From an uncultured Rhodospirillaceae bacterium (lineage in GTDB: Bacteria > Pseudomonadota > Alphaproteobacteria > UBA9219), in assembly GCA_964453225.1 (NCBI GenBank), contig CAYVNS010000006.1, positions 9,036 to 73,035 of the forward strand: 64,000 nt of DNA, in the 5' to 3' direction. The stretch's first letter is position 1, and the number at the start of each line of letters is the position of its first letter. Positions 686 through 51,034 of the stretch are shown one piece after another. The position numbers and the translations under genes were made by a program. Below the pieces are notes generated by a model. That model worked only from the letters and a program-made list of their open reading frames with translations, did no database searches and was not told the origin of the DNA.

Positions 686-3600
686 CTATGGGATACACGC
701 GGTGCTCGTATAGCTGAAGGATACGGATCCTGGACCGCCGCCGTAGCCGCAGGGCATAGCTCCATTACCCCTGCAATAATAAGCCGATCCCCCGCCAGCA
801 GAGTAGCCACCACTGGGGCCTATTCCGCCATTGCCGCCCTTTTGCCCTTGGCCGCCGCCACCGCCGCCACCGCCAAAGTAGGTACCGCCTCCGTATCCGC
901 CGCTTCCTGCGCCCGCACCACCGCCACCGCCACCGCCTGCGCATGAACCGCCAGAGCCTGCACCGCCGCTTGCTCCACCGCCTGCGCCGCCGGTTCCTGA
1001 ACAGGCTGGTCCACCGCCGCCGCCGCCATAGCCTGAGCCACCACCGCCGCCGCCGCACTTAGAATATTGGCCTGTATAGCTGCCGGAATTAGAGGACATC
1101 CCCCTGCCGCCACCGCCACCGCCGCCGCCAACATAGACGGTTAGCGTGCTGCCCTTAGGAACAGCCACACTGCCGCTAACGGTAGCTCCGCCATGACCGC
1201 ATGTATCCATCGTACCGCCGCCCATTCCGCCAGATGCATAATTGACAAGGCTGCCGTCTTTGAGCAAAGCCGTGGAACCGCCGCCGCCTCCGGGCGCTCC
1301 GCCGGAGCCATGCTGATTAGCACCGCCGCAACCGTGGCCTCCACCGCCCCCTCCGACCAGCGTATAGGAAAGACTGCTTATATCCGCAGGAACGGTGAAC
1401 GTCGTTGTGCTGGTAATTGACTTGCTGCATGACACGGGAGGCGCCGAACAGGTCGCTGTCGCGCCATTATAGTTAAGCGTTCCGTCGTTGCATGTGAAAG
1501 TCGCCTGTCCGGTTTTTCCGTTAGTCGATGCTATCTGTGTCGAGCCTCCATGCGCCAATGCGCCCACTGTCCCCTTGCACACAACGCTGTTGATGATCCA
1601 CATCCTTTCAGCTGACGCGCAAGACGACACGCATGACGAGCTTGACGGCCCAGACCAAGTGCCGTTGCTACAGGTATAGCTTGCGGTTCCTGTCGTGGGA
1701 GATGTCGCGTCTTGAACGGTTTGCGTGCCGCTGCCCGCCGCCGTTAAGTTGCCGGAGCATTTGCCGCCCGCTCCCCAAGTAACGGCTGTCGCAGGACATG
1801 AGGAATTATTACAACTGGATGTCCCCACCTGCTCGACCCATGTTCCGTTTGTGCATGCATAGTAGTTGTATCCGGTTTTGCCGTTTGTTGACATGACAAG
1901 AGACCCAAAGCCGGAGTTGGCCTCAGCCGTATAGCCGGAACATGTTATTGATCCCACTGTCCACGATTTCAACTGCGCCGGACACGAGGTTGCCGTGGAT
2001 GTGCAAGACGACGCTGTCGGACCAGACCAAGAGCCGTTATTGCAGGTATAGGTCACGCTTCCCGATGTGCCGGAAGTTGACGTATTTGCGCTCGAAGACG
2101 ATCCTGAAGAAACGCCGTTCAAATAGCCCGAACAGGATGGGCTGGAACCCCATGTCACAGTCATGCCTGTACATCCTGCGGCCGGGGCCGTGCAAGACGA
2201 CGATGTCGGCCCAGACCAAGAGCCGCTGTTACAGCTATAGGTCGCGCTCCCACTGTTGCCGTTCGATGAATTAGCCGTCGAAGATGATCCTGAAGCAACG
2301 CCGTTCAAATAACCTGAACAAGATGGGCTGGATCCCCAGCTTGCTGTTGTTCCGCTGCATGACGCAGGCGCTGAGCAAGGCCCTGACTGGTAAGTTAGGC
2401 TGCCTGTGCTGCCGCATAAGAATGTTGCGGTTCCCGAATTACCGTTGGTGGAGGTTATGGATGTCGTTGAACCGGCATTGGTGACGGAGGACGTGGATCC
2501 GCCGCATGTATTTCCTGAAGTCCATGTTGCATAGGTTCCTGCCGCGCACGTTACCGAAGGCGAACAGGTCGCGCCTGGCTGCACCTTCAATGTGCCTGCT
2601 TCGCATTTAAAGGATGCGCTTCCGTTGTTTGTGCCGGTCGCGGTCACGTTTATCGGCGAGCCGGAAATAGCTGCGGCATTCGTTGTGCCGGTACATGAAT
2701 AGTCTCCTGACGTCCAATTTACGGATGTTCCCGCAGGGCATCCTGCTCCCCCCGCCGTGCAACTGGCGGCTGTCCCACCGGATGGATAACTATTGCATGT
2801 CCACGTCCACGGGCCGCTCCCCGAAACCGCGCTTGCATTACCTTTGGCGCATAATGTCGTTGACGGCGGCGTTGCCGACGGCATGGTGGTCATGGTTGTG
2901 CCATGCGCGGTGCCGCACTGGCCGTCTATGGGCGGCGCTTTTTCCGAATACCCGTCTGTGCAATCAGCGACGGACGTTTCCGCGCCCCCGTTGACGCTGA
3001 CATAAAGCCCCGACTCCTCTACCGGATTAGTGCCCGCCAAGGCCCATCCATAATTTTTGAGATCAACGCCCCCATAGGTGTATTTCGGCGACATCAGTTC
3101 CGTAGCCTTGAAAAGGAGTTTGTTGTATTGATTAAAAACGACGTTCGCGCAGCTTGAAGCGCCTTGCGGGTCGTAAATGCAGTCATCACTGTAATTGCTG
3201 CGGGTATACCTGAATTTTAATGGGCTGCTGGGATCTGTGCTTCCTAGAACGATGGAAATTGGATCGGGCTGATTGGGTCGATTAATCGGCTGCTTAGTGT
3301 ATACGCCGACCCGAACTAGGGATTCGCCGCCCGGCACTGCGATGTTTTGCGGGGAACTACCCGGAACGGCTATTGTACCGACGATGGGGGTAAACGAACC
3401 AGCGCTGCATCCATCATAGCTTTTCGCTCCCTTTGAAAAATCAACCTGGGCATCGATAACCGCATAGCCCCAGTCGAAGGCGTAAGTTCCGCCAGCACTC
3501 ATGCTGGTGTTAAGGAGATTGCTGCCGAGAAACGAAGCAAATTCACTTTTATTTTGTTGCGGAATAAAAATATCCTTTCCGCTTTTATTCGAGACAAACC

Positions 3601-4156
3601 TTCCCATCCCGTCATTATAATATTCTATGAACAGCGCATTCAGGGTATTATCGTTCATTCGGATGCCCTGGCTTTGATTGCTCCCCCAAACGGTAACTTT
3701 ACTGCAAGGAATGTATTGGCATTCTTTTTTGTCGGTGCTTTTGCCGCTGCAATACCCGCAAGACGGCAACTGCGTCACATTAATATTGATCCCCGCGACC
3801 GTATATATTCCTGTTCGCGCCACGCCCGTATCATTTCGAGGGATTAGTCTGCTAATTCTTCCGCTTTCAACCCCTCCACTGTACCCCTTGCTTTCAAACC
3901 ATTCAGGCATTGTAGATGATTCCGACCAAGAACATCCTTCGGACGATAATGTAATTTCAGCTACAAGCTGAACACTTTCAAACGGAAGAGTAACATTCTT
4001 CGAAAGAGGCGCTCCATAAGAGCGGGCAAAAAAATCATCCGGGGTTTTTGCCCAAGTGGAATTCACATCATATGTGCATGCCGAGAATGCCGGGATCGAA
4101 TCGCCGATCAGGAACACAAAAAACGCAAAAAGCAAAATAGCCGAGCGCATGGGCAA
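686..4156 (-). CDS. Giant secreted/surface protein (1156 aa): N-terminal signal peptide, unique N-terminal domain, tandem Cys-containing ~45-50 aa Ser/Thr/Gly-rich repeats, poly-Gly/Tyr C-terminal tail
   Basis: The long ORF starts MPMRSAILLFAFFVFLIGDSIPAFSA (signal peptide). Internal units repeat with the form SCSGYLNGVxSGSSSxANxSxxGxSGSxTYxCNxGSWSGPTxSSCT. The last ~250 aa are nearly all G/S/Y/A. Overlapping + and - ORFs in the track are frame artefacts of the GC-rich repeats. Confidence 0.7.
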   Translation of the reverse strand: MPMRSAILLFAFFVFLIGDSIPAFSACTYDVNSTWAKTPDDFFARSYGAPLSKNVTLPFESVQLVAEITLSSEGCSWSESSTMPEWFESKGYSGGVESGRISRLIPRNDTGVARTGIYTVAGININVTQLPSCGYCSGKSTDKKECQYIPCSKVTVWGSNQSQGIRMNDNTLNALFIEYYNDGMGRFVSNKSGKDIFIPQQNKSEFASFLGSNLLNTSMSAGGTYAFDWGYAVIDAQVDFSKGAKSYDGCSAGSFTPIVGTIAVPGSSPQNIAVPGGESLVRVGVYTKQPINRPNQPDPISIVLGSTDPSSPLKFRYTRSNYSDDCIYDPQGASSCANVVFNQYNKLLFKATELMSPKYTYGGVDLKNYGWALAGTNPVEESGLYVSVNGGAETSVADCTDGYSEKAPPIDGQCGTAHGTTMTTMPSATPPSTTLCAKGNASAVSGSGPWTWTCNSYPSGGTAASCTAGGAGCPAGTSVNWTSGDYSCTGTTNAAAISGSPINVTATGTNNGSASFKCEAGTLKVQPGATCSPSVTCAAGTYATWTSGNTCGGSTSSVTNAGSTTSITSTNGNSGTATFLCGSTGSLTYQSGPCSAPASCSGTTASWGSSPSCSGYLNGVASGSSSTANSSNGNSGSATYSCNSGSWSGPTSSSCTAPAAGCTGMTVTWGSSPSCSGYLNGVSSGSSSSANTSTSGTSGSVTYTCNNGSWSGPTASSCTSTATSCPAQLKSWTVGSITCSGYTAEANSGFGSLVMSTNGKTGYNYYACTNGTWVEQVGTSSCNNSSCPATAVTWGAGGKCSGNLTAAGSGTQTVQDATSPTTGTASYTCSNGTWSGPSSSSCVSSCASAERMWIINSVVCKGTVGALAHGGSTQIASTNGKTGQATFTCNDGTLNYNGATATCSAPPVSCSKSITSTTTFTVPADISSLSYTLVGGGGGGHGCGGANQHGSGGAPGGGGGSTALLKDGSLVNYASGGMGGGTMDTCGHGGATVSGSVAVPKGSTLTVYVGGGGGGGGRGMSSNSGSYTGQYSKCGGGGGGSGYGGGGGGPACSGTGGAGGGASGGAGSGGSCAGGGGGGGAGAGSGGYGGGTYFGGGGGGGGQGQKGGNGGIGPSGGYSAGGGSAYYCRGNGAMPCGYGGGPGSVSFSYTSTACIP
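1900..2520. repeat. Intragenic tandem DNA repeats encoding the Cys-containing repeat units of the giant protein
   Basis: Near-identical stretches such as gtgcaagacgacgctgtcggaccagaccaagagccgtt / gtgcaagacgacgatgtcggcccagaccaagagccgct recur at ~140 bp spacing. They are mirrored by repeated peptides in the off-frame ORFs 1942-2274 and 2284-2484. Confidence 0.6.
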
Positions 4157-4639
4157 GCTCCGAAAAGGCTTTGCAACGATTCAATAATGAATCACCACAA
4201 AGATTTAAGAAGTGCTTAATCCACTTCTAAGCACCCTTTATTATCAGTCAAATATATCTCTAATTACTTAATTTGAGACTGGAAGTGGACCGGCTTTGGT
4301 TAATAACAAAAAACCTTGAATTATTTGATTTCTATTGAGAAATTGTTTCGTATCCCTTATGAATTTTTGCGTTTTAACAAATTCATAACTTAAAAATACG
4401 GTAGGAACTCCAGCCGTTTTTTTCATAGCAATGGAAATCCAAAATGAACAAAGAGAAGAAGAACTACAGTATTGCCGGAAATACTGAAATTATTGTTTTA
4501 GGCAAAAAGTATATCCGGCATCTCTTCTGCTTATTTCCCAAAGATGAAACCACTCATTCATCCCGGTTCAATGGATCGATATCATTTTATCGGTTTCCAT
4601 TTTTTCCGATGCCCATTATTTTACTTAAGGAAAAAAATT

Positions 4640-5359
4640 ATGTCCGAACTTGAGAAATACAAAAGAGTGGCAAAAACCGTCTTCGCGAGAGCAAAAAAAT
4701 ACGGCGCTCCGCTCGACCCGGCGGATTTGGAAAAATTAACAACCCTGTGCGCCGCGATATATTGGGCCGATAATTATTTCGATAAAAACAATGTTCACGA
4801 CCGCGCCAAAGTCGCGCAGCAGATTTTGCAGAATGCGCGGATTGACAAAATACCGGGTTTCAATGCCAACCCCGAAACCTGCGAGGCTTTGGAAAAGCTA
4901 AAGAAAGTTCTGAGCACCCTGCCCGAAGCGCAAGCGACCTATTTCAAGAATGCCTTGCTGGAAGCCTTGAAACACGGCGAAAAACTGCGCACCACAAAGG
5001 ATATAAAAACGTTCATCAAAGCACGCTACGTAGAAGCCCTTCATACGGCTGATTTATGCTCGACTCTTATCGCGGACAAAATCGACCAACTCGAAGAAAC
5101 CCGGCGAGATCTCTTCTGGAAGAAATCTCGCGACCGCGTGATCTACGTGAATTACGCCGATAGCTTTCTGGACGCTCCTCAGGACTGGAAGAATAAGGAA
5201 ATTCTTATCAATCCGCACATTCTTCGCCTTCATCTGGTTTTTGATAAATATCCGGGAAAGCCTCCTTATTTGTCTTGCTTCACAAAACACGTAAAAAAGA
5301 AACTGAAGAGCATAAGGCAATCGGTTTTTGGCTCGGCGTCGATCCCCCAACCAAGCTGA
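4640..5359 (+). CDS. Hypothetical protein, paralog A of a tandem pair (about 240 aa)
   Basis: An ATG preceded by aaggaaaaaaatt gives MSELEKYKRVAK, which matches the start of the next gene (MSELDRYKKAVS). The two share colinear conserved blocks (WADNYFDKNN/WIDRHFDENN, HGEKLRTTKDI/HGERLHTTKNI, INPHILRLHLVF/INPHLLRLHLLF, YPGKPP). I recognise no known domain. Confidence 0.6.
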   Translation: MSELEKYKRVAKTVFARAKKYGAPLDPADLEKLTTLCAAIYWADNYFDKNNVHDRAKVAQQILQNARIDKIPGFNANPETCEALEKLKKVLSTLPEAQATYFKNALLEALKHGEKLRTTKDIKTFIKARYVEALHTADLCSTLIADKIDQLEETRRDLFWKKSRDRVIYVNYADSFLDAPQDWKNKEILINPHILRLHLVFDKYPGKPPYLSCFTKHVKKKLKSIRQSVFGSASIPQPS

Positions 5360-5389: not shown

Positions 5390-6076
5390 ATGTCAGAGCT
5401 GGATAGATATAAAAAAGCCGTCTCTATAATCGTTAGAAGAGCGGGAAAATTCGGAGTATCGCTCGACGAAGAGGATGTGCAGAAGCTCAACGTGCTGTGG
5501 ATCGCCATATTCTGGATCGACAGGCATTTTGACGAGAACAATGAAAAAAACTGGGCCGACAAAGTTCTTCCTGGCATTGAAACGGGCAAAATCGATGAAG
5601 GTCTGGGCAGCCATCCTGAGACGCGCGTCGCCGTTCAAAACCTCATCGAGGTCTTGCACTCTCTATCGGAAAGACAGCAAGAGGATTTTAAAGTCGCCCT
5701 TCGGAAAGGGCTGGAACACGGAGAACGCCTTCATACGACAAAAAACATACAGGAATTTATTGAATCGAGGCGCCAGGAGGCCATTCACGTCGGCGATATG
5801 TCCCCCATTTTTTTCGCCGATAAAATCGACCGGCAAGACGAAAAAACGCGCAATCTTATATGGAAATCCTTTCGGGATTGCATGGTCATCTTTAATTTTG
5901 CCGACAGCATCAAGGACGCGATTCAGGATCGGAAGAATAACGAGATTCAGATCAATCCACACCTTCTTCGCCTTCATCTTCTTTTTGGAAATTATCCCGG
6001 AAAACCGCCTGTTCCGCGGTTCCTGAAATGGTTCGCAAAGCGCAAGCTGAAAAGCGCCTTGCATAGGGTGCTATAA
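5390..6076 (+). CDS. Hypothetical protein, paralog B of the tandem pair (228 aa)
   Basis: It lies 30 bp after paralog A on the same strand and aligns with it over the full length. Confidence 0.6.
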   Translation: MSELDRYKKAVSIIVRRAGKFGVSLDEEDVQKLNVLWIAIFWIDRHFDENNEKNWADKVLPGIETGKIDEGLGSHPETRVAVQNLIEVLHSLSERQQEDFKVALRKGLEHGERLHTTKNIQEFIESRRQEAIHVGDMSPIFFADKIDRQDEKTRNLIWKSFRDCMVIFNFADSIKDAIQDRKNNEIQINPHLLRLHLLFGNYPGKPPVPRFLKWFAKRKLKSALHRVL

Positions 6077-15961: not shown

Positions 15962-18900
15962 TCACGTCCTTATGATCCACCTGTTCAGCATCGCGGCAAT
16001 CTGTTCCTGCTTAAACGGCTTGTTCAAATAATCATCCATGCCCGCATCAAGGCATTTTTCCCGATCGCCTGTCATGGCGTCCGCCGTGAGCGCGACAATA
16101 ATCGTGTGATTTTTTCCGTTGGCCTCTTCCTCCCGGATGCGGCGCGTCGCCTCGAAGCCGTCCATGATCGGCATTTGGCAGTCCATGAAAACAATATCGT
16201 ATTTCGTTTCCCTAATCTTGGCGACGCCCTCCTCGCCGTTGTAGGCCGTATCGATGGATGTGACTTCCATTTTTTCGAGGATTTTCTGCATCAGCATCTG
16301 GTTGACCTTCATATCCTCGACAAGAAGAACGCGCGCGCCCTGGAACGACCCCTTTTGCTGGCGGGCCTCGGCATCGCCGTTTTGAAGCTGCGCGATCATG
16401 CTGCGCGTCAGAAGCCCCCTTTTGTCTTTCTTCTGATAGCCGTCCCACAATATTTTAAAGGCGTCTTGCAGCTGATCGGGGAAAAGAGGCCGTGTCAGCA
16501 AGGCGGCGCGATCCGTGCATTTCAGGATGCGCGTGGCCGTTTGCGGCCCGAAAACGGCGGCTATGACAAACATGACGTTGCGCACTTCGTTCGGTATTTC
16601 CTTCGCATCCATCAGTTCCAGAATTCTTTGGACGCCGATCTTGTCGTCGACGTAGACGAAGTGGAAAGCCGCGCCATCCTGGCTCGCATCTTTCAATTGC
16701 TGAAGAAAATTCTGGAAATCGTCGCAAAAGCTGCCGGCCATTCCCCATGCCTTAAGGTAATCGCCGATTATCTTGCGCTTAATATCGCCATCGCAGAAAA
16801 CAAGCACGCGAAGGCCGCGGATATCGATCGGCGGGACTTTAGATATATCGTTAAGGGGCCTTGGGAGATTGATGTCAAAATGGAAATTGGATCCTTTGCC
16901 GACTTCGCTATCGACCTTAATTTCGCTTTCCATCAGATTGATCAGCAGTTGGCTGATGGCAAGGCCGAGACCCGTGCCGCCAAAGCGTCGCGTCGTGGAT
17001 TCCTCGGCTTGCGAGAACTTGTTGAAAATGTGCGCCAGATGCTCGGAGGCAATGCCGATGCCCGTGTCTTTGACGCTAATGGAAAGCCTTGTGTCGCTTG
17101 CCCCGACATTCCGGCTTCCTATATCGAGGAAAACATGGCCTTTCGGCGTAAATTTAATGGCGTTGCCCACAAGATTAAGGACGACCTGCTTGATGCGCAG
17201 CACATCGCCGATCAAATAGCGCGGAGTCGCCGGATCAATTCGGACAATCAGCTCGATTCCTTTTTCATGCGCGCGCAGAACCAGCATGTCGGTGATTTCC
17301 GCCATCGCCGAATAAAAATTGAACGTCACAAACTCCAGCTTCATGCGGCCGGCTTCGATTTTGGAAAAATCGAGAATATCGTTGATGATCTCCAAAAGGC
17401 CCATGCCGGAGTTGTAGATGATTTCGGCCCAGCTTCGCTGTTCGGCGTCGAGCTTCGTATCCATCAAGAGCCGCGCCATGCCAAGCAGCCCGTTCATCGG
17501 CGTGCGTATTTCGTGGCTCATGTTCGCAAGGAAGTCGCTCTTCGCGGCATTGGCCTGTTCGGCCGCAAGCTGCGCTTTCATCGCTTTCGTTTGCGAAACT
17601 TCGATTTCGCCAATGAACAGCTGCAACTGCAATTCGCGCGCGCTGATTTCCTCGACCTGCTGTTCCAAAAGAGCTTTATTTTTTTCGACTTCAATCTGCT
17701 CCAGCGTTGCTTCCGCGCGGTTGTAGTTAATGCAGTTCCCCGGATGATCGTTGCCCTTTAATATCGCGGTGGCAAAGCGGCGGCAGCTGCCGTAGCCGCA
17801 GGAAAAACAATCGATGTGCCGGCTTTCTTCATCCAGTTTGTGAAGTTTCGTGAAAACCTCGTCGTATTGTTCTTCGCTGAAGCTTTCTTCTTCCGACCGT
17901 TTTCTTTTATCGACGTAGCTGCGAAGGAAATCATCCAGTTTCAGGGTTTTATCGAACTCCTTAAACAGGGAATAGACAACCTTGCCGTCTTCGGTTTTCT
18001 CTTTCTCCTGCAATTTCTGCACCTTCAAGGCGTTGATCTGCGAGTCGATGTCGTCGATGCAGGCGTCCTTGCATGTGCCGGTGCCAAGATTGCATCCATG
18101 CGGGCAATTTAATACATCGAGGAAGAGAGGCAGGCTTTTTCCCTCCCTTATGCGTTCGGAATATTCCGAAAGATAGGTATACGCGTGGTCGACGCCTTCG
18201 ATCTGGCGCACCCATGCATGGCCTTTAGTATGATATTCAAGATTTTCCCTTAGGCCTCCCGGGCGGCAAAAAACCATCCCGATTCCGCAGCCGACATCGT
18301 CGAAATCCTTTTCAAGCTGGTTATCGAGGCGAATATTATGGGCCGCCATATACGCGGCCAGCTTTTTGAACGTCACGTTGTAGGAAACGATATTGCCCGT
18401 GTCCCGGAGTTCCTGCGTTTTTCCGAGACACGGTGAGAGAAAGGCTATTTTGTCGTTCACGCCGACATAATTTCTCATGTAGATGGCCGAACAAAGCGCG
18501 GGGCTGTGAACCGGGGCGAGATTCTCTATGAGCTCGGTCTTGTGCTTTTCAATAAAGGAAACGATCGGCGGGCACGGCTGCGCGATGATCGAGGCCAGGC
18601 GCTTGTCATCGACCACTTTCAGATAAGCCCACGTCGTAATATCCGCGCCGAAGGAAACGTCGTAAACGAGGTTGACGCCGAGGCTTTTCAATAACCCGAA
18701 AAGTTTTTTGTAATTGGCGACGTTGTATCGAATGGACGGCGCCGCAATAACCGAAATTTTTTCGCCTTTGGCAAGATCGGAAAAAAAGGCTTCTGTGTCG
18801 TCGATGTAGTCGCGGGCGCCGTGCGTGCAAACCGCTATGCACTGTCCGCAATTAATGCAGCGGTCGGGATGAATGCGAACCTTGTTCTTTCCGTTTACAA

Positions 18901-18994
18901 CGTAGGCCACATTCGCGTCCTCGACAGGGCAGCGGGCAATGCATTTGTTGCAACCGATGCATTTGCTTTCATCGAGAACGATAATGTCGGGCAT
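15962..18994 (-). CDS. Hybrid sensor histidine kinase with N-terminal 2x[4Fe-4S] ferredoxin and [FeFe]-hydrogenase-like (H-cluster domain-like) sensor, HisKA, HATPase_c, C-terminal receiver
   Basis: CIGCNKCIARCP and CINCGQCIAVC are ferredoxin motifs. QPCPP, LSPCLGKTQE and LNCPHGCNLGTG correspond to the three [FeFe]-hydrogenase signature motifs TSCCP, MPCxxKxxE and ExMxCxxGCxxG, with reduced cysteine content. The H-box is ANMSHEIRTPMNG, the G-box is [10 protein letters not shown], and the receiver has DIVFMDCQMPIMDG and a T/K pair. Confidence 0.8.
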   Translation of the reverse strand: MPDIIVLDESKCIGCNKCIARCPVEDANVAYVVNGKNKVRIHPDRCINCGQCIAVCTHGARDYIDDTEAFFSDLAKGEKISVIAAPSIRYNVANYKKLFGLLKSLGVNLVYDVSFGADITTWAYLKVVDDKRLASIIAQPCPPIVSFIEKHKTELIENLAPVHSPALCSAIYMRNYVGVNDKIAFLSPCLGKTQELRDTGNIVSYNVTFKKLAAYMAAHNIRLDNQLEKDFDDVGCGIGMVFCRPGGLRENLEYHTKGHAWVRQIEGVDHAYTYLSEYSERIREGKSLPLFLDVLNCPHGCNLGTGTCKDACIDDIDSQINALKVQKLQEKEKTEDGKVVYSLFKEFDKTLKLDDFLRSYVDKRKRSEEESFSEEQYDEVFTKLHKLDEESRHIDCFSCGYGSCRRFATAILKGNDHPGNCINYNRAEATLEQIEVEKNKALLEQQVEEISARELQLQLFIGEIEVSQTKAMKAQLAAEQANAAKSDFLANMSHEIRTPMNGLLGMARLLMDTKLDAEQRSWAEIIYNSGMGLLEIINDILDFSKIEAGRMKLEFVTFNFYSAMAEITDMLVLRAHEKGIELIVRIDPATPRYLIGDVLRIKQVVLNLVGNAIKFTPKGHVFLDIGSRNVGASDTRLSISVKDTGIGIASEHLAHIFNKFSQAEESTTRRFGGTGLGLAISQLLINLMESEIKVDSEVGKGSNFHFDINLPRPLNDISKVPPIDIRGLRVLVFCDGDIKRKIIGDYLKAWGMAGSFCDDFQNFLQQLKDASQDGAAFHFVYVDDKIGVQRILELMDAKEIPNEVRNVMFVIAAVFGPQTATRILKCTDRAALLTRPLFPDQLQDAFKILWDGYQKKDKRGLLTRSMIAQLQNGDAEARQQKGSFQGARVLLVEDMKVNQMLMQKILEKMEVTSIDTAYNGEEGVAKIRETKYDIVFMDCQMPIMDGFEATRRIREEEANGKNHTIIVALTADAMTGDREKCLDAGMDDYLNKPFKQEQIAAMLNRWIIRT

Positions 18995-19171: not shown

Positions 19172-19504
19172 TTATTTTCTCTCGTTAAGCGCTTTTTTAA
19201 CCTTTTCCAGCTCGGCCTCCATGTCGGCAAGCATCGCTTTTTTTGCATCGGCGCCTGATTGAAACTCATCCTGCGCCTTTTTGCATATTTCGCCAAGCGG
19301 CGCAGCGCCAAGATTAAAGCTTATGCCCTTAAAAGCGTGCGCATGATCCCGCCATGCTTTTTCGTTGCCGTTAGCCAGCGCTTCATGAAGGCCGTTGACG
19401 CATTCAACGGACGAAGAAAGGAAAAGCTGAAAAAGCTCGGCCTCCATGGCGGAATCGCCCCCCGTAATGTCCTGAAGATTGCTAAAATTTACTGATGGAT
19501 CCAC
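19172..19504 (-). CDS. Hpt (histidine phosphotransfer) domain protein
   Basis: A 110-aa helical protein with a conserved His in HAHAFKGISFNLGA. It lies between the response regulator and the hybrid kinase. Confidence 0.7.
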   Translation of the reverse strand: MDPSVNFSNLQDITGGDSAMEAELFQLFLSSSVECVNGLHEALANGNEKAWRDHAHAFKGISFNLGAAPLGEICKKAQDEFQSGADAKKAMLADMEAELEKVKKALNERK

Positions 19505-20459
19505 GAACGCCTCCCTTGTGGCTGATCACATAGCGCTCGATGTAATCCAGCACCTGTTTCTTGGTGTACGGCTTCATGATAAAGCCGTCGACATTGTTCT
19601 GCCGCGCAACGCCAAGTTCGCCTTCATATGTGTTAGCGGTGACGATAATCACCTGCGCCATCGGGTCCAATTCCTTGATCGCACGAGTCAGCGAGTGGCC
19701 GCTGCCGTCGATCAAGCCCAGATCGATGAAAGCGATATCATGGGCTTTCTTGAGAAAAAGATCCCACGCCTCCCTGATGGTTTGAACCGCATCGACGGAA
19801 GGCGCCTCGCGCGTGCTGGATCGCGCGCCGCGCAGGATTTCGCAAAGCAGCCTTTGCGAAAAAATTTGATCTTCGACTACAAGAATTTGCAACTGCTTGC
19901 GAAACGGGCGCTGATCCCTGATTTCTATGTAGGAGGTCACCTGCTCCGGCGTAACGGAAAAGATGCTTTTAACGCCTTTTTCTTTTTCCGTATCGTCATC
20001 GTCATCCAGATCGAACGGGCTGGCGTCTTGCGGCAAGGGGCCTTTGATTTTCGGCTTTAACGCATTCGCCTGCGAGGATTTCTCAATTTCCGCTTCAAGA
20101 GCCGTTTTAAAATCAGCGCCGCGAGCCTTCGGATCCATGTAGGAAATAACGGCCAAAGGCTCGGCTGCCATGCCCGCTTGCACCAGGTTCGCAAGCACGA
20201 CTCCGCGTATATGCTTGTAAATCGCTTTTTGCTCCCCGCTCCAGGCAATATATATATTCTTGTTATCTGAAAAATAAATCTGCGCCTCTTTTGCTTCCTG
20301 AATGGCCGGCGTAACAGCAAGAAGGAAAGCTTCGTTCGTCATCGTCTTCAGGTTGTTGCGACGAATGCAGGCTACGCCCCATGTCGAATCGCCTTTCTTT
20401 GCGATTTCATCGACCAAAGAAATAAGGGGAATTAGGCTATCATATTCAACGGCATCCAT
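19482..20459 (-). CDS. Response regulator: uncharacterised ~160-aa N-terminal domain plus C-terminal receiver, no recognisable DNA-binding output
   Basis: The receiver is LQILVVEDQ...DIAFIDLGLIDGSG...IIVTAN...KPY. The N-terminal domain is homologous to that of the regulator at 46511-47287. Confidence 0.7.
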   Translation of the reverse strand: MDAVEYDSLIPLISLVDEIAKKGDSTWGVACIRRNNLKTMTNEAFLLAVTPAIQEAKEAQIYFSDNKNIYIAWSGEQKAIYKHIRGVVLANLVQAGMAAEPLAVISYMDPKARGADFKTALEAEIEKSSQANALKPKIKGPLPQDASPFDLDDDDDTEKEKGVKSIFSVTPEQVTSYIEIRDQRPFRKQLQILVVEDQIFSQRLLCEILRGARSSTREAPSVDAVQTIREAWDLFLKKAHDIAFIDLGLIDGSGHSLTRAIKELDPMAQVIIVTANTYEGELGVARQNNVDGFIMKPYTKKQVLDYIERYVISHKGGVRGSISKF

Positions 20460-21131: not shown

Positions 21132-21164
21132 AACCTTTAATAAGATGGTTCCTTATTAAAGGTT
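21132..21164. promoter_or_regulatory. Perfect 13-bp inverted repeat with 7-nt spacer immediately upstream of the fic start
   Basis: aacctttaataag atggttc cttattaaaggtt. Confidence 0.4.
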
Positions 21165-21171
21165 GGGCTTT

Positions 21172-22350
21172 ATGGAAAAAGCATCAAACAAGAACAGACT
21201 CGGCTCCTACGTTTCTCGGTCTAGCGCCGGAGAAATGTACAAGGCCTTCGTACCCCCTGCTCTGCCGCCTGATCCGCCGCTTGATATGGATAGACTATAC
21301 AAACCACTCGACAAGGCCATGAAGGCTTTGGGCGAACTGGATGCTTTGGCAAAGCTTCTTCCGGATATAGGCCTTTTCCTTTACATGTACGTTCGTAAAG
21401 AAGCCCTCCTATCTTCGCAGATAGAAGGAACTCAGTCGTCTTTATCCGATCTTCTGCTTTTTGAAAATCAGGAAAAGACAAATGCACCGGCGGACGATGT
21501 CGAGGAAGTTTCAAATTATATCGCCGCGCTTAATCATGGACTGAAGCGGATGAGGGGAGGTTTCCCTTTATCGACCCGCCTTATACGCGAAATGCACGCT
21601 ATTTTATTACGCGGCGGGCGCGGTTCCACTAAAGCGCCTGGAGAGTTTCGCCGCTCGCAGAACTGGATTGGCGGCACCAGGCCCGGTAAGGCTCGTTATG
21701 TCCCCGCTCCACCTGAAATGGTTGGCGACCTTATGAGCGATTTGGAAAAATTTATCTACACCGACAAACAAAGCCTGCCGACTTTGATTAAGGCAGCGCT
21801 CGTTCATGTGCAGTTTGAAACGATCCATCCTTTTCTCGACGGCAATGGACGTCTGGGGCGGCTGCTCATTACCTTGTTGCTCTGCGCTAACGAGACGCTG
21901 GTTCAGCCGATTTTGTACCTCAGCCTGTATTTTAAAGAACATCGGCAGATTTATTACGATCTTCTGCAAGACGTCCGATTGAAAGGCGATTGGGAAGAAT
22001 GGTGTGAATTCTTCCTTGATGGAGTGCAGGAAACGGCAACCAAAGGCTCGGCTGACGCGAAAAAAATTATTGATCTATTAGAGCGCGATCGCAAACGTAT
22101 CGGCGTGATCGGCAAGGCATCAAAGAGTGCATTAAAAGTTCATGAGTATCTGCTGAAGAAACCGTTTCTGTCGATCACCAAGGCATCAAAGACGCTTAAG
22201 CTATCTGTTCCGACCACAACGAATGCCGTGCAGAAATTAGTGAAGATCGGGCTCCTGAAAGAACTAACCGGCGGCGCACGAAACAGGCTTTTCGCATATA
22301 CCGATTATCTGGCCATTCTAACTGTTGGCACCGGGCCGCTGAAGAAATAA
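21172..22350 (+). CDS. fic: Fic family protein (AMPylation/Fido domain)
   Basis: The Fic motif HPFLDGNGRLGRLL is present. The track ORF starts at an upstream TTG, but the ATG at 21172 (MEKASNKN) is more likely. Confidence 0.85.
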   Translation: MEKASNKNRLGSYVSRSSAGEMYKAFVPPALPPDPPLDMDRLYKPLDKAMKALGELDALAKLLPDIGLFLYMYVRKEALLSSQIEGTQSSLSDLLLFENQEKTNAPADDVEEVSNYIAALNHGLKRMRGGFPLSTRLIREMHAILLRGGRGSTKAPGEFRRSQNWIGGTRPGKARYVPAPPEMVGDLMSDLEKFIYTDKQSLPTLIKAALVHVQFETIHPFLDGNGRLGRLLITLLLCANETLVQPILYLSLYFKEHRQIYYDLLQDVRLKGDWEEWCEFFLDGVQETATKGSADAKKIIDLLERDRKRIGVIGKASKSALKVHEYLLKKPFLSITKASKTLKLSVPTTTNAVQKLVKIGLLKELTGGARNRLFAYTDYLAILTVGTGPLKK

Positions 22351-22361
22351 AGCAGCTAAAA

Positions 22362-23768
22362 TCACCCAACAAGTTGCTCAGCGTCGTTCTCCATTCTTTC
22401 ATAAAAACTGCCGAGGTCATTTCCCAAATGGAACTGGCTATTGCAACGATTTCTTGGAAGAAACAAGCCATATAAATCGGATTCCGTCATATACTCGTCA
22501 AACGAATAAGGAAGAGGAAACAGTTTGAATTTCGACATATAGTCTTGAACCGCCGCTTTGATAGTCTCCGGCGATGCATTTTTAAATATCAGCCGATACA
22601 TCATTTCGGCCACAAAATCGAAGTCTTTTTCCTTTAAACCTCTTCTTGTCGCCGACTGGACGCCGAGCCGGAATCCATAAATATTGTCTTCTTCCGACAG
22701 CACGACATTGTTTGTTCTAATGCCGCCCTTATTCAAAAATTCTCTTGTTACAAAATCGGTGCGCGCCCAATCGCCTATTGCCACATGCACTTGATTTGTT
22801 TGCGTATAGCCGAATACATCCCCTCTTACGTTAAAGCCTCTTTCGGCAAGAACCTTCGCCAAACGCTTGGCATTAAGCTTGGTTTGCAGGGCATAAGAAG
22901 CGCCAAAATATTTTATCTCTAAAAGCGTGACGTAGAAGTTGATTAAAAGTTCCGAATGGCAATTGCTTTGCAGTTTTGGGAAAACACACGGAGAGATTTT
23001 GTCGCACAATGCCCTTGAATCCGCATATCCAACATACCCCTTCTGTGGCCCCGGGATGGTTTTGTGCGTGCTTCCGTGGATAATATCGGCCCCCACATCA
23101 ATCGGATTGGGTAATGTGCCGGTTGCAATAAAAAGCCCGTCATGACTTGCGTCGTAGGACAAAACGACGTCCTTTGGAAGCGCTCGCCTTATCTCCTTAA
23201 TGTCTTGCATCCGTAATTTATTGGATTGGTCAAGCATCACTACCCGAATTTCAGGATGCTTTTTAATCGTCTCAGACAAAGCTTCCGCATCGATAAGAAG
23301 GCTATCTTTCTTGACTTTAAAATAATAACTATTAACTCCTAATTGTTCCGCCATCCCATCCAGTGCGAAATGCCCTCCGTCGCTTCTGGAAAAATGAACA
23401 ATGCCATCTCCTCTCCCGCACAAACCGAAGAGAACCGCATGTTCGCACCCTTCTCCGCCGTTGGGCCTCCAATCGAAATATTTTGTACCGAAGATTTCGT
23501 TTCCCAGAGAGATAAGCTCTGCATTAAAACGATCTACAGCCTCGCTTCGCGGATAGAAAGTCTTGAATTCATAGTTATCGACAGGAGGCTGGAAATCGTA
23601 AAAGCTTGAGCTAACGAAGTTATGTGCGCTGCGGACGTGAAAACTTGGATAATTCTCGTTCGCGGTCAGAGAGATGCAATTTTCATGATGCTGCGCATCT
23701 TCAAATAGCCTGTTGGCAATGTTCCTGACCAAGGAACGATAACCTGACTGAATATCACTATTATCCAT
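22362..23768 (-). CDS. Serine hydroxymethyltransferase-fold PLP-dependent enzyme, strongly divergent (candidate aldolase/transaldolase)
   Basis: LTANENY resembles SHMT LIASEN. DGGHFALDG resembles GGHLTHG. HGSTHKTIPGPQKGY resembles TTTHKTLRGPRGG with the PLP lysine. The 468 aa protein diverges elsewhere. This is the last gene of the AT-rich operon. Confidence 0.65.
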   Translation of the reverse strand: MDNSDIQSGYRSLVRNIANRLFEDAQHHENCISLTANENYPSFHVRSAHNFVSSSFYDFQPPVDNYEFKTFYPRSEAVDRFNAELISLGNEIFGTKYFDWRPNGGEGCEHAVLFGLCGRGDGIVHFSRSDGGHFALDGMAEQLGVNSYYFKVKKDSLLIDAEALSETIKKHPEIRVVMLDQSNKLRMQDIKEIRRALPKDVVLSYDASHDGLFIATGTLPNPIDVGADIIHGSTHKTIPGPQKGYVGYADSRALCDKISPCVFPKLQSNCHSELLINFYVTLLEIKYFGASYALQTKLNAKRLAKVLAERGFNVRGDVFGYTQTNQVHVAIGDWARTDFVTREFLNKGGIRTNNVVLSEEDNIYGFRLGVQSATRRGLKEKDFDFVAEMMYRLIFKNASPETIKAAVQDYMSKFKLFPLPYSFDEYMTESDLYGLFLPRNRCNSQFHLGNDLGSFYERMENDAEQLVG

Positions 23769-23849
23769 TTTTCGTCAATCCCGTTTGGGGCAATGCCGGC
23801 GCACGACTCTTTTGCGCCGGCAGCAGCATCTATCCATCACAAGGCGGCT

Positions 23850-24905
23850 TTAAAGCGCACTACTTTGCTTTTTTGTCCAAAATTTTTTCAAGACCTCATC
23901 CATCGTCTCAATATCGATGTCTAAATATTTGATGAGGTCGAGGGTTGCCGGAGGTAATGATTTAACCTCCTCGCTGACCAGAAGCTCTTTGGCTTCCTGA
24001 ATTGAAATTTCCCCGAACTTCAGAAGGTTGCTGACTTGGACATTCTTTCCGCAATATCCATGCTTTTTGTATTTAAAATATTCCAGTATGGGGTTGATCT
24101 TGCAGTCGGCGTGGAAAAACTGTCCTTTCGGATGCCTCCAATCGTACAATTCCTTAAGTTTCTTGTTGACCGCATGATAATCGCTATCGACGTCATAAAA
24201 ATCTGGCAAATCGACGGTCAGAAACTTGGGCCTCCAATTCTTAATATGAAGGAAATCAGCATTCCGGTTCAAATCTTCTTTCGTGATGTTCTGCTGTTTC
24301 GCAAAAGACTCAATCTTCTTATTAAACTCTTCCTCGGATTTTGCATAATATCCGCTGTAATTGCTGTCGATATAATTGTAATCGAATTTCGAATTGATGC
24401 CGCGCAGATATATGGGCACATCGTATAACTTGGCTGCCATTGCAACGACATACTCATGGCCCTGATGGCATGGAGAGCAAAATTCACCGTAATTCACCAA
24501 GAAACCCCTAGTTATCTTTTTATTGAAGGCCTCATTAATCTTGAACGTTATGAAGTCAACTCCTTGAACTGAAGAACACCGGTCCATATTGAACTTGGCC
24601 TCATCGGTAACAAATCCCGTGTCGTAATAGACGGCCAACGGCACAAGTCCCAGATGGTTCTTGACATAGTCGAGCATGAACCCGCTGTCTCTTCCTCCCG
24701 TAATTCCAATAATACAATCGTATTTTGAAGTGTTTTCCGCGGCGACTTCTCTTACTTGTTCCAAGCTCATGGAGAGATTGTCGTTCGACAGCATCTGTCC
24801 CGGACTTTTGGTCACGTCGATATCCGATGAACAATAATTGCATCCCTCTTGCGTCGCATTAATGACATCGCCGGGCATTAAACATTTCTTACAATTGCCG
24901 CACAT
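23850..24905 (-). CDS. PP-loop ATP pyrophosphatase-family amidotransferase with N-terminal Cys4 ribbon (N-acetyl sugar amidotransferase-like)
   Basis: CGNCKKC...CNYC at the N-terminus, then the PP-loop IGITGGRDSGFMLDY. The ~350 aa architecture is as in WbpG/WbuX-type amidotransferases. Confidence 0.6.
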   Translation of the reverse strand: MCGNCKKCLMPGDVINATQEGCNYCSSDIDVTKSPGQMLSNDNLSMSLEQVREVAAENTSKYDCIIGITGGRDSGFMLDYVKNHLGLVPLAVYYDTGFVTDEAKFNMDRCSSVQGVDFITFKINEAFNKKITRGFLVNYGEFCSPCHQGHEYVVAMAAKLYDVPIYLRGINSKFDYNYIDSNYSGYYAKSEEEFNKKIESFAKQQNITKEDLNRNADFLHIKNWRPKFLTVDLPDFYDVDSDYHAVNKKLKELYDWRHPKGQFFHADCKINPILEYFKYKKHGYCGKNVQVSNLLKFGEISIQEAKELLVSEEVKSLPPATLDLIKYLDIDIETMDEVLKKFWTKKQSSAL

Positions 24906-42266: not shown

Positions 42267-43163
42267 TTATCCTTTTGCGGTATGTGCATGATCCTTTTCC
42301 CTCTCCGGCAGTGCGGCTTCCAAAGCCTTCAGTCGTATTTCGTTTGCCAGAGTGACAAGTTGATTATCGCGAAAAGCGCTGACAAAAGATGCGCCGGCCT
42401 CTCCCTTTTTATCTTTATGGAATTTTTCATGCGCGTCGACGATCTCCGGGTCAAGCCATTTGTTCCGTCCCGGATCTTCGAAAAGAGCCTGCTCGACCGT
42501 ATAGTTCTCCATGTGCGGGCGCCTCACGAAAAAAACGCTCTGGCCTTCGTTGGTATGAATATGGAAATCGTTCCGCGCTTCGAAATGCGCCGTCAAAAGC
42601 ACTTCGGAATTGAATTCGCGCGTGGCGGCATAGTCGCGCGCATGATCGAAAAGCTTATGGAAATAGAGAATGGGCTCCATACCGCCCAAGGCAAAAAGAT
42701 CGGACAACACGTAATCTTTTTTCCACCACGAGACCCATAGATCCTTTGCTTTCAGCGTGGGAATGACGTTGTCGAGCGTATAGACGAAATGCAGATCGGC
42801 GCGGCTGCGCATGCCAAGATCGTAATCGGCCTTGAACGGTTCGACCAGCCTTGCGACCTCGCGCCAGCTGAAGTACTGGGAAAACATGCGCGACGGAATA
42901 TTGATGTTGTCGTGACGAAACGCGGGGTCGGTATCGGCGTCCGAAAAGTCGCGCGGTTTTTCAAAAACAAAAGCGCGCGGCTTCAACAAAGACACAATTT
43001 CTTCTTTTTCTTTGTCGTCGACCGCATCCCAGAAATGGAAAAAGAAATCGGCGTCGTAATCTTGCAAAAGCGCCTGCTGCGTGGGCAGGCAAGCCCGCCA
43101 CTGGCGCGGCAAGCCCGAAAGAAGCACAGCGATGCGCGGCTTATGTTCGCCGCCCCCTCTCAC
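42267..43163 (-). CDS. Hypothetical protein, last gene of a 3-gene translationally coupled operon (possible sugar-modifying/transferase role)
   Basis: 4-bp ATGA overlap with the upstream gene. No motif recognised. Confidence 0.4.
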   Translation of the reverse strand: MRGGGEHKPRIAVLLSGLPRQWRACLPTQQALLQDYDADFFFHFWDAVDDKEKEEIVSLLKPRAFVFEKPRDFSDADTDPAFRHDNINIPSRMFSQYFSWREVARLVEPFKADYDLGMRSRADLHFVYTLDNVIPTLKAKDLWVSWWKKDYVLSDLFALGGMEPILYFHKLFDHARDYAATREFNSEVLLTAHFEARNDFHIHTNEGQSVFFVRRPHMENYTVEQALFEDPGRNKWLDPEIVDAHEKFHKDKKGEAGASFVSAFRDNQLVTLANEIRLKALEAALPEREKDHAHTAKG

Positions 43164-44233
43164 AGGTATTCCTGCAAGTAAGGCGCAAGCGGGCTATCGC
43201 GCAAAAGAGAAACCGCGCTGCAACTTGGATAAGGATTGGTCGGCGCATGATCGTTAATCATGACGCGCCGGCCATGGTGGCATCCCGTCAGTATGGCGTG
43301 GGGTTTGATTCCATATTTTCTCAAAAGCTCAAGAATCTGCCCCTTAAGGTTCTCCCCGCGCGCCGTGACAATAACGACCTGAGCGCCGTTCGCCTGCGCT
43401 TTGCCAAGAGCCTCCAGATTTTCAGCGATTGGCTCAAGGCAGGTCTCCCAGTTCTTCGAGCCGTATTGGCCGACGTTTTTAACAAGCACGCCGTCGAAAT
43501 CGCAAAACAGGGATGCAAACCTGTTTTGCCGCGCGCGCCATTCGCGCAACGTTCCCCAGTCTTCGTAGCCCGTCGCCTCATGCGCGCGGAATAGTTGGCC
43601 CTGGCGCGCGATCATCCACGCGATGACATGGCTGACGAAGGTTTCCTTCTCCAGTCCCGCATTCGAAGACATATCCTTGAAAGAAGCCTGAAAACCCTCG
43701 GCGGACGCAAATTGATAAGCCCCCGCGCAGAACGTGTTGGAAATGATCCGTTTTTCAACGATGTCCTGAACGATCCCGTTTTTATCGAGAGCGACGTAGC
43801 TTTTCGCGGCGACGTCCCTCGTGTCGCGCAGCCGGCTCAGATTTCCGACGACAACGAAATTCTGAACGTCGCCGCCATCGTCCCATGCAAGGTAATTGTC
43901 GCAATCCTTGACGAGAACCGGCCCCTTTATCGATGCTTCGGCAATGGCTTGATAAACCGTTTCCGCCTGCCCGGCGGTAAATTCCGGCAAGGTCACAATG
44001 TGCAAGCGGCTCCCAAAGCGTTCAAGCGCCTGCCGCAGGATCAATCCGCCTTCGAATTCCTCGTCATGCTCTTTGACAATCACGAAAACCATGCGGTCGA
44101 ACCGATCCGTGCCGCAGCCGTCCAATGCCTTGTCGGCCATAAGACGCCCGTCGGGATGAGTCAGAAGCCACTTGGGGCGCATATCGGGAAAACGGGAAGA
44201 GCGTCCGGCGCAAGGCACAAGCAAAGTGGTCAT
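43160..44233 (-). CDS. Nucleotidyltransferase (MobA/LicC/MurU-like NTP-transferase fold) fused to a short HAD-like phosphatase domain
   Basis: The N-terminus LLVPCAGRSSRF resembles the G-x-G-x-R nucleotide-binding loop of sugar-phosphate nucleotidyltransferases. The C-terminus LFCDFDGVLV (HAD motif I DxDGxL) ...VVIVTAR (motif II) ...NDHAP. Confidence 0.55.
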   Translation of the reverse strand: MTTLLVPCAGRSSRFPDMRPKWLLTHPDGRLMADKALDGCGTDRFDRMVFVIVKEHDEEFEGGLILRQALERFGSRLHIVTLPEFTAGQAETVYQAIAEASIKGPVLVKDCDNYLAWDDGGDVQNFVVVGNLSRLRDTRDVAAKSYVALDKNGIVQDIVEKRIISNTFCAGAYQFASAEGFQASFKDMSSNAGLEKETFVSHVIAWMIARQGQLFRAHEATGYEDWGTLREWRARQNRFASLFCDFDGVLVKNVGQYGSKNWETCLEPIAENLEALGKAQANGAQVVIVTARGENLKGQILELLRKYGIKPHAILTGCHHGRRVMINDHAPTNPYPSCSAVSLLRDSPLAPYLQEYL

Positions 44234-45126
44234 GGAGAAACCGTCAAAAAGCCATCGAGAGCCGCCGCCAACCTGTTTTCGACAAAAACGCGGTCTTCCG
44301 GCGCGGAAACGTAAGGAAGGATACGCAAAAGGTGCAGGGCGTACAAGTCGCGAATAACCCCAAGGGAGCCGGGATATTTTTCCTCAAGAGCTTTTTCGAG
44401 GCTATGCCTCAGGCTTGCGAGGCGCAAAACAAGATTCCTGTCGGCATCGATCCGGCGAAAACTCCATCCGCCGATCAAATCCTGCAAAAGCTTCGCCATG
44501 TCCAGATACCAACTATCGGCAAAGCTATCCAGAAAATCGATAAGATAGAATCTCTCGCGGTGAACGATGATATTTTCAAGAGTTAAATCCCCGTGACAGG
44601 GCGATTTGGGAATCCCTTCCCATGAACGCTTCGACAGAATATCGACCGTTCGCGCGACTGCTGGAGATAAACAGCCTTTTTCATGAAGGACGCGCCGCAA
44701 CTCGGCGATTTTGCCCAGAAAAACCGAGGCAGGAAGCGAGCCTTCGCTTTGCCGTTCCGTAAAATTCATAAGCATCGCGGACCAGTAGCGGATTTCCGAC
44801 AGCGGCAAGGCTTCAAGCTTTTCGGCAGCGGTGACGCCGGGCACATAATCCATATCTATGTAGGCAATGCCCGTGGGAAGAGAGCCGACGAAACGCACCT
44901 TTACGGCCTCAAAAAAAGCATTGCCGGAAAAAGTCTTTTGTTTCTCGGCCTGTTTTTCAAGTCGGCCGTTATAGTCTTGGCTTTTGGATGTCTTGCGGAC
45001 GAAGATATCTTCTTTTCCCTCGACCAAAAGAACCTGGCAGCCGGAAAAACCGCGCAACAGGATGAGGCGCGCTTCAGCATCAAGGCGGCTGTCTCGGCAA
45101 AAAATATCGTTCATGAAGGCAAACAC
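44230..45126 (-). CDS. Aminoglycoside-phosphotransferase/choline-kinase-fold small-molecule kinase (AmgK/LicA-like)
   Basis: The catalytic loop CHGDLTLENIIV and YLIDFLD (metal-binding D). 4-bp overlap with the downstream nucleotidyltransferase. Confidence 0.6.
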   Translation of the reverse strand: MFAFMNDIFCRDSRLDAEARLILLRGFSGCQVLLVEGKEDIFVRKTSKSQDYNGRLEKQAEKQKTFSGNAFFEAVKVRFVGSLPTGIAYIDMDYVPGVTAAEKLEALPLSEIRYWSAMLMNFTERQSEGSLPASVFLGKIAELRRVLHEKGCLSPAVARTVDILSKRSWEGIPKSPCHGDLTLENIIVHRERFYLIDFLDSFADSWYLDMAKLLQDLIGGWSFRRIDADRNLVLRLASLRHSLEKALEEKYPGSLGVIRDLYALHLLRILPYVSAPEDRVFVENRLAAALDGFLTVSP

Positions 45127-51033: not shown

Positions 51034-51034
51034 C

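Follow-up and report, generated by a model that had tools for sequence, protein, structure and literature searches.

Response regulators with an undescribed N-terminal domain in two paralogous phosphorelays of an uncultured alphaproteobacterium

Introduction

What might a response regulator do when its receiver stands at the C-terminus, behind a domain that matches no known output? The question is raised twice by a 64,000-nt stretch of DNA from an uncultured Rhodospirillaceae bacterium (the window; positions 9,036 to 73,035 of contig CAYVNS010000006.1, assembly GCA_964453225.1), in which two response regulators, RR1 and RR2, each have a hybrid histidine kinase and an Hpt protein as neighbours. 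An initial annotation had described the two systems as paralogous phosphorelays and had proposed that the N-terminal domains (N-domains) of the two regulators share sequence blocks. The outputs of most response regulators are drawn from a small set of known domains, and the N-domain would be a constant endpoint for very different sensors. Its definition would add a new two-component output class in poorly studied, uncultured Alphaproteobacteria and would correct automatic labels such as 'chemotaxis CheY' and 'transcription factor'.

We find that RR1 and RR2 belong to a class of response regulators whose N-terminal domain is undescribed, and that their N-domains are probably related to each other. 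The class overturns nothing known, and since unclassified response-regulator outputs are already a known category, the N-domain is no conceptual surprise.

Results and discussion

Two paralogous phosphorelays

The two systems consist of the following features, given with their positions in the window.

19482-20459, minus strand: RR1, a response regulator of 325 aa with an N-domain, an acidic linker, a pre-receiver helix and a receiver (REC)
20061-20459, minus strand: N-domain of RR1 (aa 1-133), with a predicted ferredoxin-like fold and without a database family
19962-20060, minus strand: acidic linker of RR1 (aa 134-166; isoelectric point (pI) 4.5), containing DLDDDDDTEKE
19172-19504, minus strand: Hpt1, a stand-alone Hpt protein of 110 aa with the motif H56-x-x-K-G (Pfam Hpt, 41.2 bits)
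15962-18994, minus strand: HK1, a hybrid kinase of 1010 aa with two [4Fe-4S] motifs (4Fe-4S dicluster), Fe_hyd_lg_C, FeS, HisKA, HATPase_c and REC
46511-47287, plus strand: RR2, a response regulator of 258 aa with an N-domain (aa 1-122), an Arg-rich pre-receiver segment (R130, R133) and a receiver
46511-46876, plus strand: N-domain of RR2, without a Pfam or PDB match
47524-49869, minus strand: HK2, a hybrid kinase of 781 aa (sCache-HAMP-HisKA-HATPase-REC-Hpt, with H725 in the Hpt domain), convergent with RR2
49913-50311, minus strand: Hpt2, a stand-alone Hpt protein of 132 aa (H76), 43 nt upstream of HK2

The open reading frames (ORFs) and Pfam domains place a hybrid histidine kinase and an Hpt protein beside each regulator, as annotated, and the paralogy of the two systems is borne out for kinase cores, Hpt proteins and receivers alike. 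Between HK1 and HK2, identity is 42% in the cores (E 2e-54) and 38% in the receivers; Hpt1 and Hpt2 share 31% identity (E 4e-17), and the receivers of RR1 and RR2 share 27% (E 6e-11). When a profile of the C-terminal half of the RR1 family was used, RR2 scored 87 bits and the receivers of HK1 and HK2 scored 58 and 43 bits, respectively, so that, of the receivers in the window, that of RR2 is nearest to the RR1-family receiver profile. Hpt2 shares 50% identity with residues 673-779 of HK2 (E 2e-35), indicating that it duplicates the C-terminal Hpt domain of that kinase, which the initial annotation had also recognised. HK1 has no Hpt domain in Pfam; its gene lies 177 nt downstream of Hpt1, which itself overlaps the 3' end (stop) of RR1 by 23 nt. 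The HxxKG motif is kept in the Hpt proteins, and the parts of a multistep phosphorelay, namely a HisKA-HATPase-REC kinase and an HxxKG Hpt beside the regulator, are present in the sequence. In this combination both systems resemble the TorS/ArcB/BarA-type phosphorelays, whose NCBIfam models are matched weakly by the Hpt proteins and by the transmitter parts of the kinases. They differ from these phosphorelays in that the Hpt of the first system is a separate gene overlapping the regulator, and in that the terminal regulator is not of the OmpR or NarL type.

The receiver is located at the C-terminus of both regulators, as had been annotated. The sole Pfam match in each protein is Response_reg (PF00072; cutoff 30.2 bits), at residues 192-307 of RR1 (52.8 bits) and 138-247 of RR2 (82.7 bits). 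The catalytic residues, as read from the sequence, are intact in both receivers (E196, D197, D246, T274 and K296 in RR1; D142, D143, D185, S213 and K235 in RR2) and are conserved across the family of each regulator. The size of 120-160 aa originally given for the N-domains turned out to be slightly generous, with a folded part of about 125-133 aa in RR1, followed by about 33 aa of acidic linker, and of about 122 aa in RR2. The linker has low confidence in the full-length AlphaFold model of RR1 and varies in length within the RR1 family; a conserved pre-receiver segment follows it. RR2 has no linker of this type, and conserved arginines directly precede its receiver (R130 in 113 and R133 in 111 of 115 RR2-family members).

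Database identity and predicted fold of the N-domain

The N-domains have no match in Pfam, NCBIfam or PDB sequences, and Pfam and NCBIfam cover only the receiver of each protein. When 27 RR1-family and 32 RR2-family N-domains were scanned singly against Pfam at E <= 1, no recurrent family, no GGDEF and no PATAN was found. Profile searches of all PDB sequences returned chance matches only (E >= 0.16; for example, DesK and integrin), and no description of the domain was found in literature searches.

AlphaFold2 was used to model the N-domain of RR1 from 27 diverse homologues, resulting in a predicted local distance difference test (pLDDT) of 90.8 and a predicted template modelling score (pTM) of 0.85; a full-length model of RR1 from 5 sequences was poor (pLDDT 48). 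The predicted N-domain is a ferredoxin-like alpha/beta sandwich in the order beta-alpha-beta-alpha-beta-beta-alpha-beta-alpha, composed of the following elements (RR1 residues).

4-6: beta strand
10-22: alpha helix
27-33: beta strand
42-53: alpha helix
58-63 and 68-74: beta hairpin
77-92: alpha helix
105-108: beta strand
110-133: alpha helix

A Foldseek search of PDB and BFVD with this model gave nothing below E 1e-3 (best E 8e-3), and the list is generic for ferredoxin-like sandwiches, including RRM, PII, ACT-like, acylphosphatase and designed ferredoxin folds. GGDEF structures recur in it with query TM-scores (TMq) of 0.37-0.44 and E of 0.014-0.16, but other ferredoxin-like folds score equally; the likeness of the predicted domain to GGDEF is one of resemblance, not membership. 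With Pfam, NCBIfam, PDB sequences and Foldseek all negative, the earlier remark that no DNA-binding or enzymatic output can be recognised in either regulator stands. The median pI of the N-domains is 5.8-5.95, acidic to neutral and unlike that of DNA-binding domains, which argues against DNA binding. For RR1, a Chou-Fasman-style call on alignments agreed with the DSSP assignment of the AlphaFold2 model at 49% of positions, which is too crude for testing the fold of RR2.

Relationship between the two N-domains

Given that the receivers of RR1 and RR2 are clearly paralogous, a central question is whether their N-domains are homologous too. The shared blocks reported in the initial annotation are not recovered at the level of single sequences: pairwise BLASTP of the two N-termini gave no alignment, and hhalign with shallow profiles (5 versus 2 sequences) gave a probability of 0.2%. 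The latter result was superseded by deep profiles (29 versus 115 sequences), in which the blocks survive. The deep alignment has a score of 31.5, an E of 1.3e-4 and a probability of 54%, and runs over 92 collinear columns from Met1 of both proteins, including QIYFSDNKNIYIA / KLYICNSREMILL; a second run on subsets gave an E of 4.4e-4 and a probability of 33%. None of 400 shuffles reached the observed score. Column shuffles (n = 200) scored 12.1 +/- 2.5 with a maximum of 20.8, block shuffles (n = 200) scored 13.4 +/- 2.0 with a maximum of 20.9, the reversed alignment scored 15.0, and real negative-control profiles, in which an N-domain was aligned with a receiver, scored 10-23. In addition, the RR1-family hidden Markov model (HMM) scored RR2 at 12.4 bits (E 6e-6 as a single comparison), and among the 254 six-frame ORFs of the window RR2 was its only other match (E 0.0026), with the next ORF at 0.9 bits. 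The observed score lies well above these controls. Taken together, these profile comparisons show a similarity that is beyond chance, yet in the grey zone as a proof of homology.

It is unlikely, in our estimate, that the N-terminal regions are unrelated, the shared blocks a coincidence and RR1 and RR2 two regulators with different orphan domains. This explanation would account for the BLASTP and shallow hhalign results, for a deep hhalign probability of only 33-54%, for the 1-2 bits that the RR2-family HMM gives to RR1, and for the C-terminal third of the two N-domains, which does not align. Against it stand the distance between the observed score and all shuffled or reversed scores, the collinearity of the alignment from the first residue, the rise in support with profile depth, and the 9-13 bits that the same RR2-family HMM gives to some RR1-family members. 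The receivers of the two regulators are also each other's closest relatives in the window, and the two families have architecture, kinase and Hpt context and genomes in common. We thus consider the two N-domains, with good though incomplete confidence, to be homologous and to represent two sister families within a single domain superfamily that has not been described before.

Size, distribution and conserved residues of the two families

When only the N-termini served as queries, word-indexed searches recovered no more than 5 and 1 proteins. In an exhaustive HMMER search with the N-domain of RR1, 32 representatives were found among 1.84 billion representative proteins, indicating that the RR1 family is rare. 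Complete members are about 285-367 aa long and share the architecture of N-domain and receiver; the shorter matches that were inspected end inside or before the receiver. The RR2 family is larger: the full-length RR2 query found over 115 full-length clusters, whose members are about 250-260 aa long and cover 98% of it. In every member seen, the N-domain is fused upstream of a receiver. The genome matches are a metagenome-assembled genome (MAG) named 'uncultured Rhodospirillaceae' (84% identity), in which the order of the genes is the same, and a second MAG, from Alphaproteobacteria (49% identity). The source names in the RR2 family, where given, are mostly 'MAG: Alphaproteobacteria bacterium', and nearly all named members of the two families come from uncultured Alphaproteobacteria. 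Two genomes were seen to contain both families, that of this window and that of the JGI contig Ga0606649_0000001 (1.97 Mb).

The RR2-family clusters (P0041-P0157) carry automatic names, 'chemotaxis response regulator CheY' from JGI and 'response regulator transcription factor' from NCBI. These names are likely misnomers in view of the extra conserved N-domain, the absence of che context and the absence of a DNA-binding domain. Chemotaxis CheY was rejected as an identity for the RR2 family, since CheY is a single domain of about 120-130 aa, whereas the RR2 family has an extra N-domain of about 122 aa and no che genes in any of the 10 inspected loci. OmpR-, NarL- and NtrC-type transcription factors were likewise rejected for RR1 and RR2, whose Pfam and NCBIfam matches are limited to the receiver.

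The two families conserve different residues in the N-domain. W26 and G59 are invariant in the RR2 family (115/115), and C64 (95/115), N65 and E68 (98/115), G76, C99 (110/115) and T107 are strongly conserved. The conserved positions in the RR1 family are W27, L37, W73 and G75. The sequence of the hairpin is SDNKN in RR1 but CNSRE in RR2, and it varies within the RR1 family (SDNKN, AGNRS, MENGD).

Kinases and Hpt genes beside the regulators

A hybrid kinase adjoins the regulator in 13 of the 15 inspected loci of both families, and the sensor domains of these kinases vary widely. For the RR1 family, a hybrid kinase was found in all five inspected loci, with an Fe-hydrogenase-like, MHYT or FIST-PAS sensor, together with an overlapping downstream Hpt gene in four loci and an Hpt fused to the kinase in one. 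The kinases are distributed as follows.

Window, loci L001 and L002: Fe-hydrogenase-like sensor
Loci L003 and L009: MHYT sensor, divergent
Locus L011: FIST-PAS sensor, with a fused Hpt

In the RR1-family loci whose kinase has no Hpt, the stop codon of the regulator is always overlapped by an Hpt gene (by 23, 23, 8 and 4 nt), the overlap of the window being kept in relatives at 23 nt in L002, 8 nt in L003 and 4 nt in L009. In the RR2 family, an adjacent hybrid kinase with a fused Hpt was found in 8 of 10 loci, and the sensors include sCache, MHYT-PAS, DAHL, GAF-PAS, PAS, CHASE-PAS, MHYT-GAF and one unassigned N-terminal region.

A proposed output and its alternatives

Based on these results, we give about an even chance to the proposal that RR1 and RR2 are the terminal regulators of the two phosphorelays, each with an undescribed N-terminal output domain that is gated by the receiver. 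Phosphoryl groups would flow from the sensor hybrid kinase through the kinase receiver and the Hpt to the C-terminal receiver of the regulator, and one constant output would serve many different sensor kinases. When phosphorylated, at D246 in RR1 and D185 in RR2, the receiver would change the exposure or the oligomerisation of the N-domain, and this change would switch its binding to a protein partner or a small ligand encoded elsewhere. As for the nature of the output, we tentatively favour a domain that binds a partner or a ligand rather than DNA, an assignment that we hold at somewhat less than even and that draws on the architecture and on the analogy with PhyR and PatA-type regulators.

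PhyR is the anti-anti-sigma factor of the general stress response and follows a partner-switching logic (compare PMC5964349). It is an alphaproteobacterial protein of about 260 aa with, like RR1 and RR2, an N-terminal output and a C-terminal receiver. The N-domain of PhyR is all-helical and sigma-like, in contrast to the predicted ferredoxin-like alpha/beta fold of the RR1 N-domain. PhyR itself was rejected as an identity for RR1, which reaches only 22.5 bits with NCBIfam NF006623 (cutoff 240), at residues 165-313, the pre-receiver segment and receiver only. The PatA-type (PATAN-REC) regulators of cyanobacteria, such as PixG, PixE and PatA, also combine a non-DNA-binding N-terminal output with a C-terminal receiver, and phosphorylation of that receiver has been suggested to make the N-domain accessible to protein partners (PMC11181946). 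They differ in that PATAN/DUF4388 is not matched by RR1, RR2 or the 59 family N-domains, the N-domain of RR1 and RR2 is shorter (about 125 aa), and RR1 and RR2 are fed by hybrid kinase and Hpt relays rather than by CheA-like kinases.

Several observations weigh against the proposed output. Two of the 10 RR2-family loci have no nearby kinase and only a single-domain receiver upstream, and no third gene is conserved beside either family in the 15 inspected loci, so that the neighbourhood gives no clue to a target. The fold model is that of the RR1 N-domain, so a fold shared by RR1 and RR2 is putative. For the homology of the two N-domains, the hhalign probability of 33-54% is in the grey zone, and one real negative control scored as high as 23. 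Moreover, D30, C64, N65, E68, C99 and T107 of the RR2 family resemble a ligand, metal or catalytic site rather than a plain protein-binding surface. These residues could point to a bolder version of an output, which we regard as a long shot. The N-domain would be a new effector fold-family from the palm/ferredoxin-like class, and its RR2 branch would keep a functional small-molecule, metal or thiol site (D/E30, C64-N65-x-x-E68, C99, T107) that either integrates a second chemical signal, possibly redox or nucleotide, with the phosphorelay, or catalyses an unrecognised reaction under receiver control.

A related idea, quite improbable in our view, is that the N-domain is a highly degenerate, palm-like GGDEF or nucleotidyl-cyclase domain placed upstream of the receiver. 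In that case it would be a cryptic enzyme or a receptor for nucleotides or c-di-GMP. GGDEF regulators such as PleD, WspR and DgcR do combine a receiver with a palm-like alpha/beta domain that has a weak fold likeness (TM 0.40-0.44) to the RR1 N-domain, and Foldseek matched SiaD, a T. maritima GGDEF protein, DosC, FimX, Dcsbis and DgcR, as well as 6khu with the first model. The element order alpha0-beta1-alpha1-beta2/beta3 hairpin-alpha2-beta4-alpha3 resembles that of the GGDEF core, and among the residues kept in the RR2 family are D/E30, on beta1, and C64-N65-x-x-E68, at the hairpin position of GG(D/E)EF. The structural matches, however, have E >= 0.014 and TM below 0.5, which the other ferredoxin-like folds equal. 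PF00990 matched none of the 59 family members even at E <= 1, PDB profile searches returned no GGDEF chain, and the hairpin is not conserved in the RR1 family. The domain order is reversed relative to GGDEF regulators, and neither a GG(D/E)EF motif nor an RxxD I-site was seen. It is very improbable that RR1 and RR2 are transcription factors with a novel nucleic-acid-binding domain. The NCBI name of the RR2-family cluster P0043, 'response regulator transcription factor', the RRM-containing structure that is the top, non-significant Foldseek match, and the ability of ferredoxin-like folds to bind nucleic acids would fit such a role; on the other side, there is no helix-turn-helix, winged-helix or other DNA-binding match in Pfam or NCBIfam, the N-domains have the acidic to neutral median pI given above, and the name of P0043 is automatic. 

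The N-domain could instead be an input or docking module, either a second sensor (redox, thiol or metal) that tunes the phosphorylation of the receiver or a docking domain that insulates each relay against its many paralogues, with the receiver or the draining of phosphate as the real output. The near-invariant C99 and the frequent C64 of the RR2 family would suit a sensor, as would the redox or peroxide genes that adjoin the RR2-family gene at 3 of the 10 loci. Docking would be consistent with the presence of several paralogues per genome, including four in tandem (L015), which implies a need for specificity determinants, and with the overlap of regulator and Hpt genes, which suggests a stoichiometric complex. 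We nevertheless regard this role as unlikely. The redox neighbourhood is absent from the other 7 loci, the RR1 family lacks the cysteines, and C64 and C99 of RR2 presumably lie on opposite edges of the sheet, as judged from the ferredoxin-like strand order and not from a model of RR2, so that a disulfide within the molecule is unlikely. The window has a terminator-like and a promoter-like site between trxB-bPH and hpt2-HK2, which is weak evidence because the counts in the promoter and terminator scans were not above those of shuffles.

The HK1 sensor and other genes near the regulators

The N-terminal ~425 aa of HK1 (~17720-18994, minus strand) form an [FeFe]-hydrogenase-like module that is fused directly to the hybrid kinase. 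It matches two 4Fe-4S motifs, Fe_hyd_lg_C (88 bits) and PF04060 FeS, and the same gene is found in L001 and L002. Its segments SPCLGKTQE and NCPHGCNLG look like remnants of the H-cluster motifs PCxxKxxE and CxxGCxxG, respectively. This similarity suggests that HK1 is a sensor of H2, redox state or O2 in an alphaproteobacterium. Between HATPase_c and the receiver called by Pfam, at aa ~725-860, HK1 also has a receiver-like pattern of about 135 aa that was not called by Pfam (VLVFCDGD ... FVYVDD ... FVIAAV ... LLTRPLF), which may be a pseudo-receiver.

The kinase-less loci of the RR2 family form a sub-branch (L007, 5585-6765; L018, 5621-6801), in which the regulator gene is preceded by a gene for a single-domain receiver of about 131 aa and the receiver-regulator pair is divergent from groES-groEL.

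The redox or peroxide genes mentioned above adjoin the RR2-family gene in the window, L013 and L015, a weak lead that three further loci did not confirm. In the window, a thioredoxin-reductase-like (TrxB) gene and a bPH gene are located upstream of hpt2-HK2 (50437-52003), and a cysteine-synthase-like (CysK, PALP) gene at 45287-46234 is divergent from RR2. In L013 (3569-10297), KatG is encoded upstream, and a gene for a cytochrome c peroxidase separates the regulator from a DAHL hybrid kinase, whose start it overlaps by 4 nt. In L015 (3579-6822), the four tandem RR2-family paralogues (260, 252, 259 and 273 aa) stand beside a PAS hybrid kinase and are followed by genes for a ferritin/Dps-like protein, AhpC and a LysR regulator.

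In L004, the RR2-family gene is directly downstream of a Flp pilin gene and near TadE/Tad genes (5796-5972 and 2770-4868), a pilus context that recalls the control of type IV pili by PATAN-REC proteins and is absent from the other loci.

Upstream of RR1, at a distance of about 700 nt and on the opposite strand, the window encodes a Fic/DOC-family protein (Fic_N and Fic; 21163-22350, plus strand), which is not among the genes called or tested beside the RR1-family gene in other loci. Two apparent sugar or surface-modification clusters are also present in the window. The one at 22362-24905 (minus strand) includes a serine hydroxymethyltransferase-like protein of the aminotransferase fold and a Cys-rich protein of 351 aa without a Pfam match. 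The other, at 42267-45126 (minus strand), includes a weak, sub-threshold match to a MobA-like NTP-transferase (25.8 bits; cutoff 27), a protein of 298 aa without a Pfam match and an APH-like kinase.

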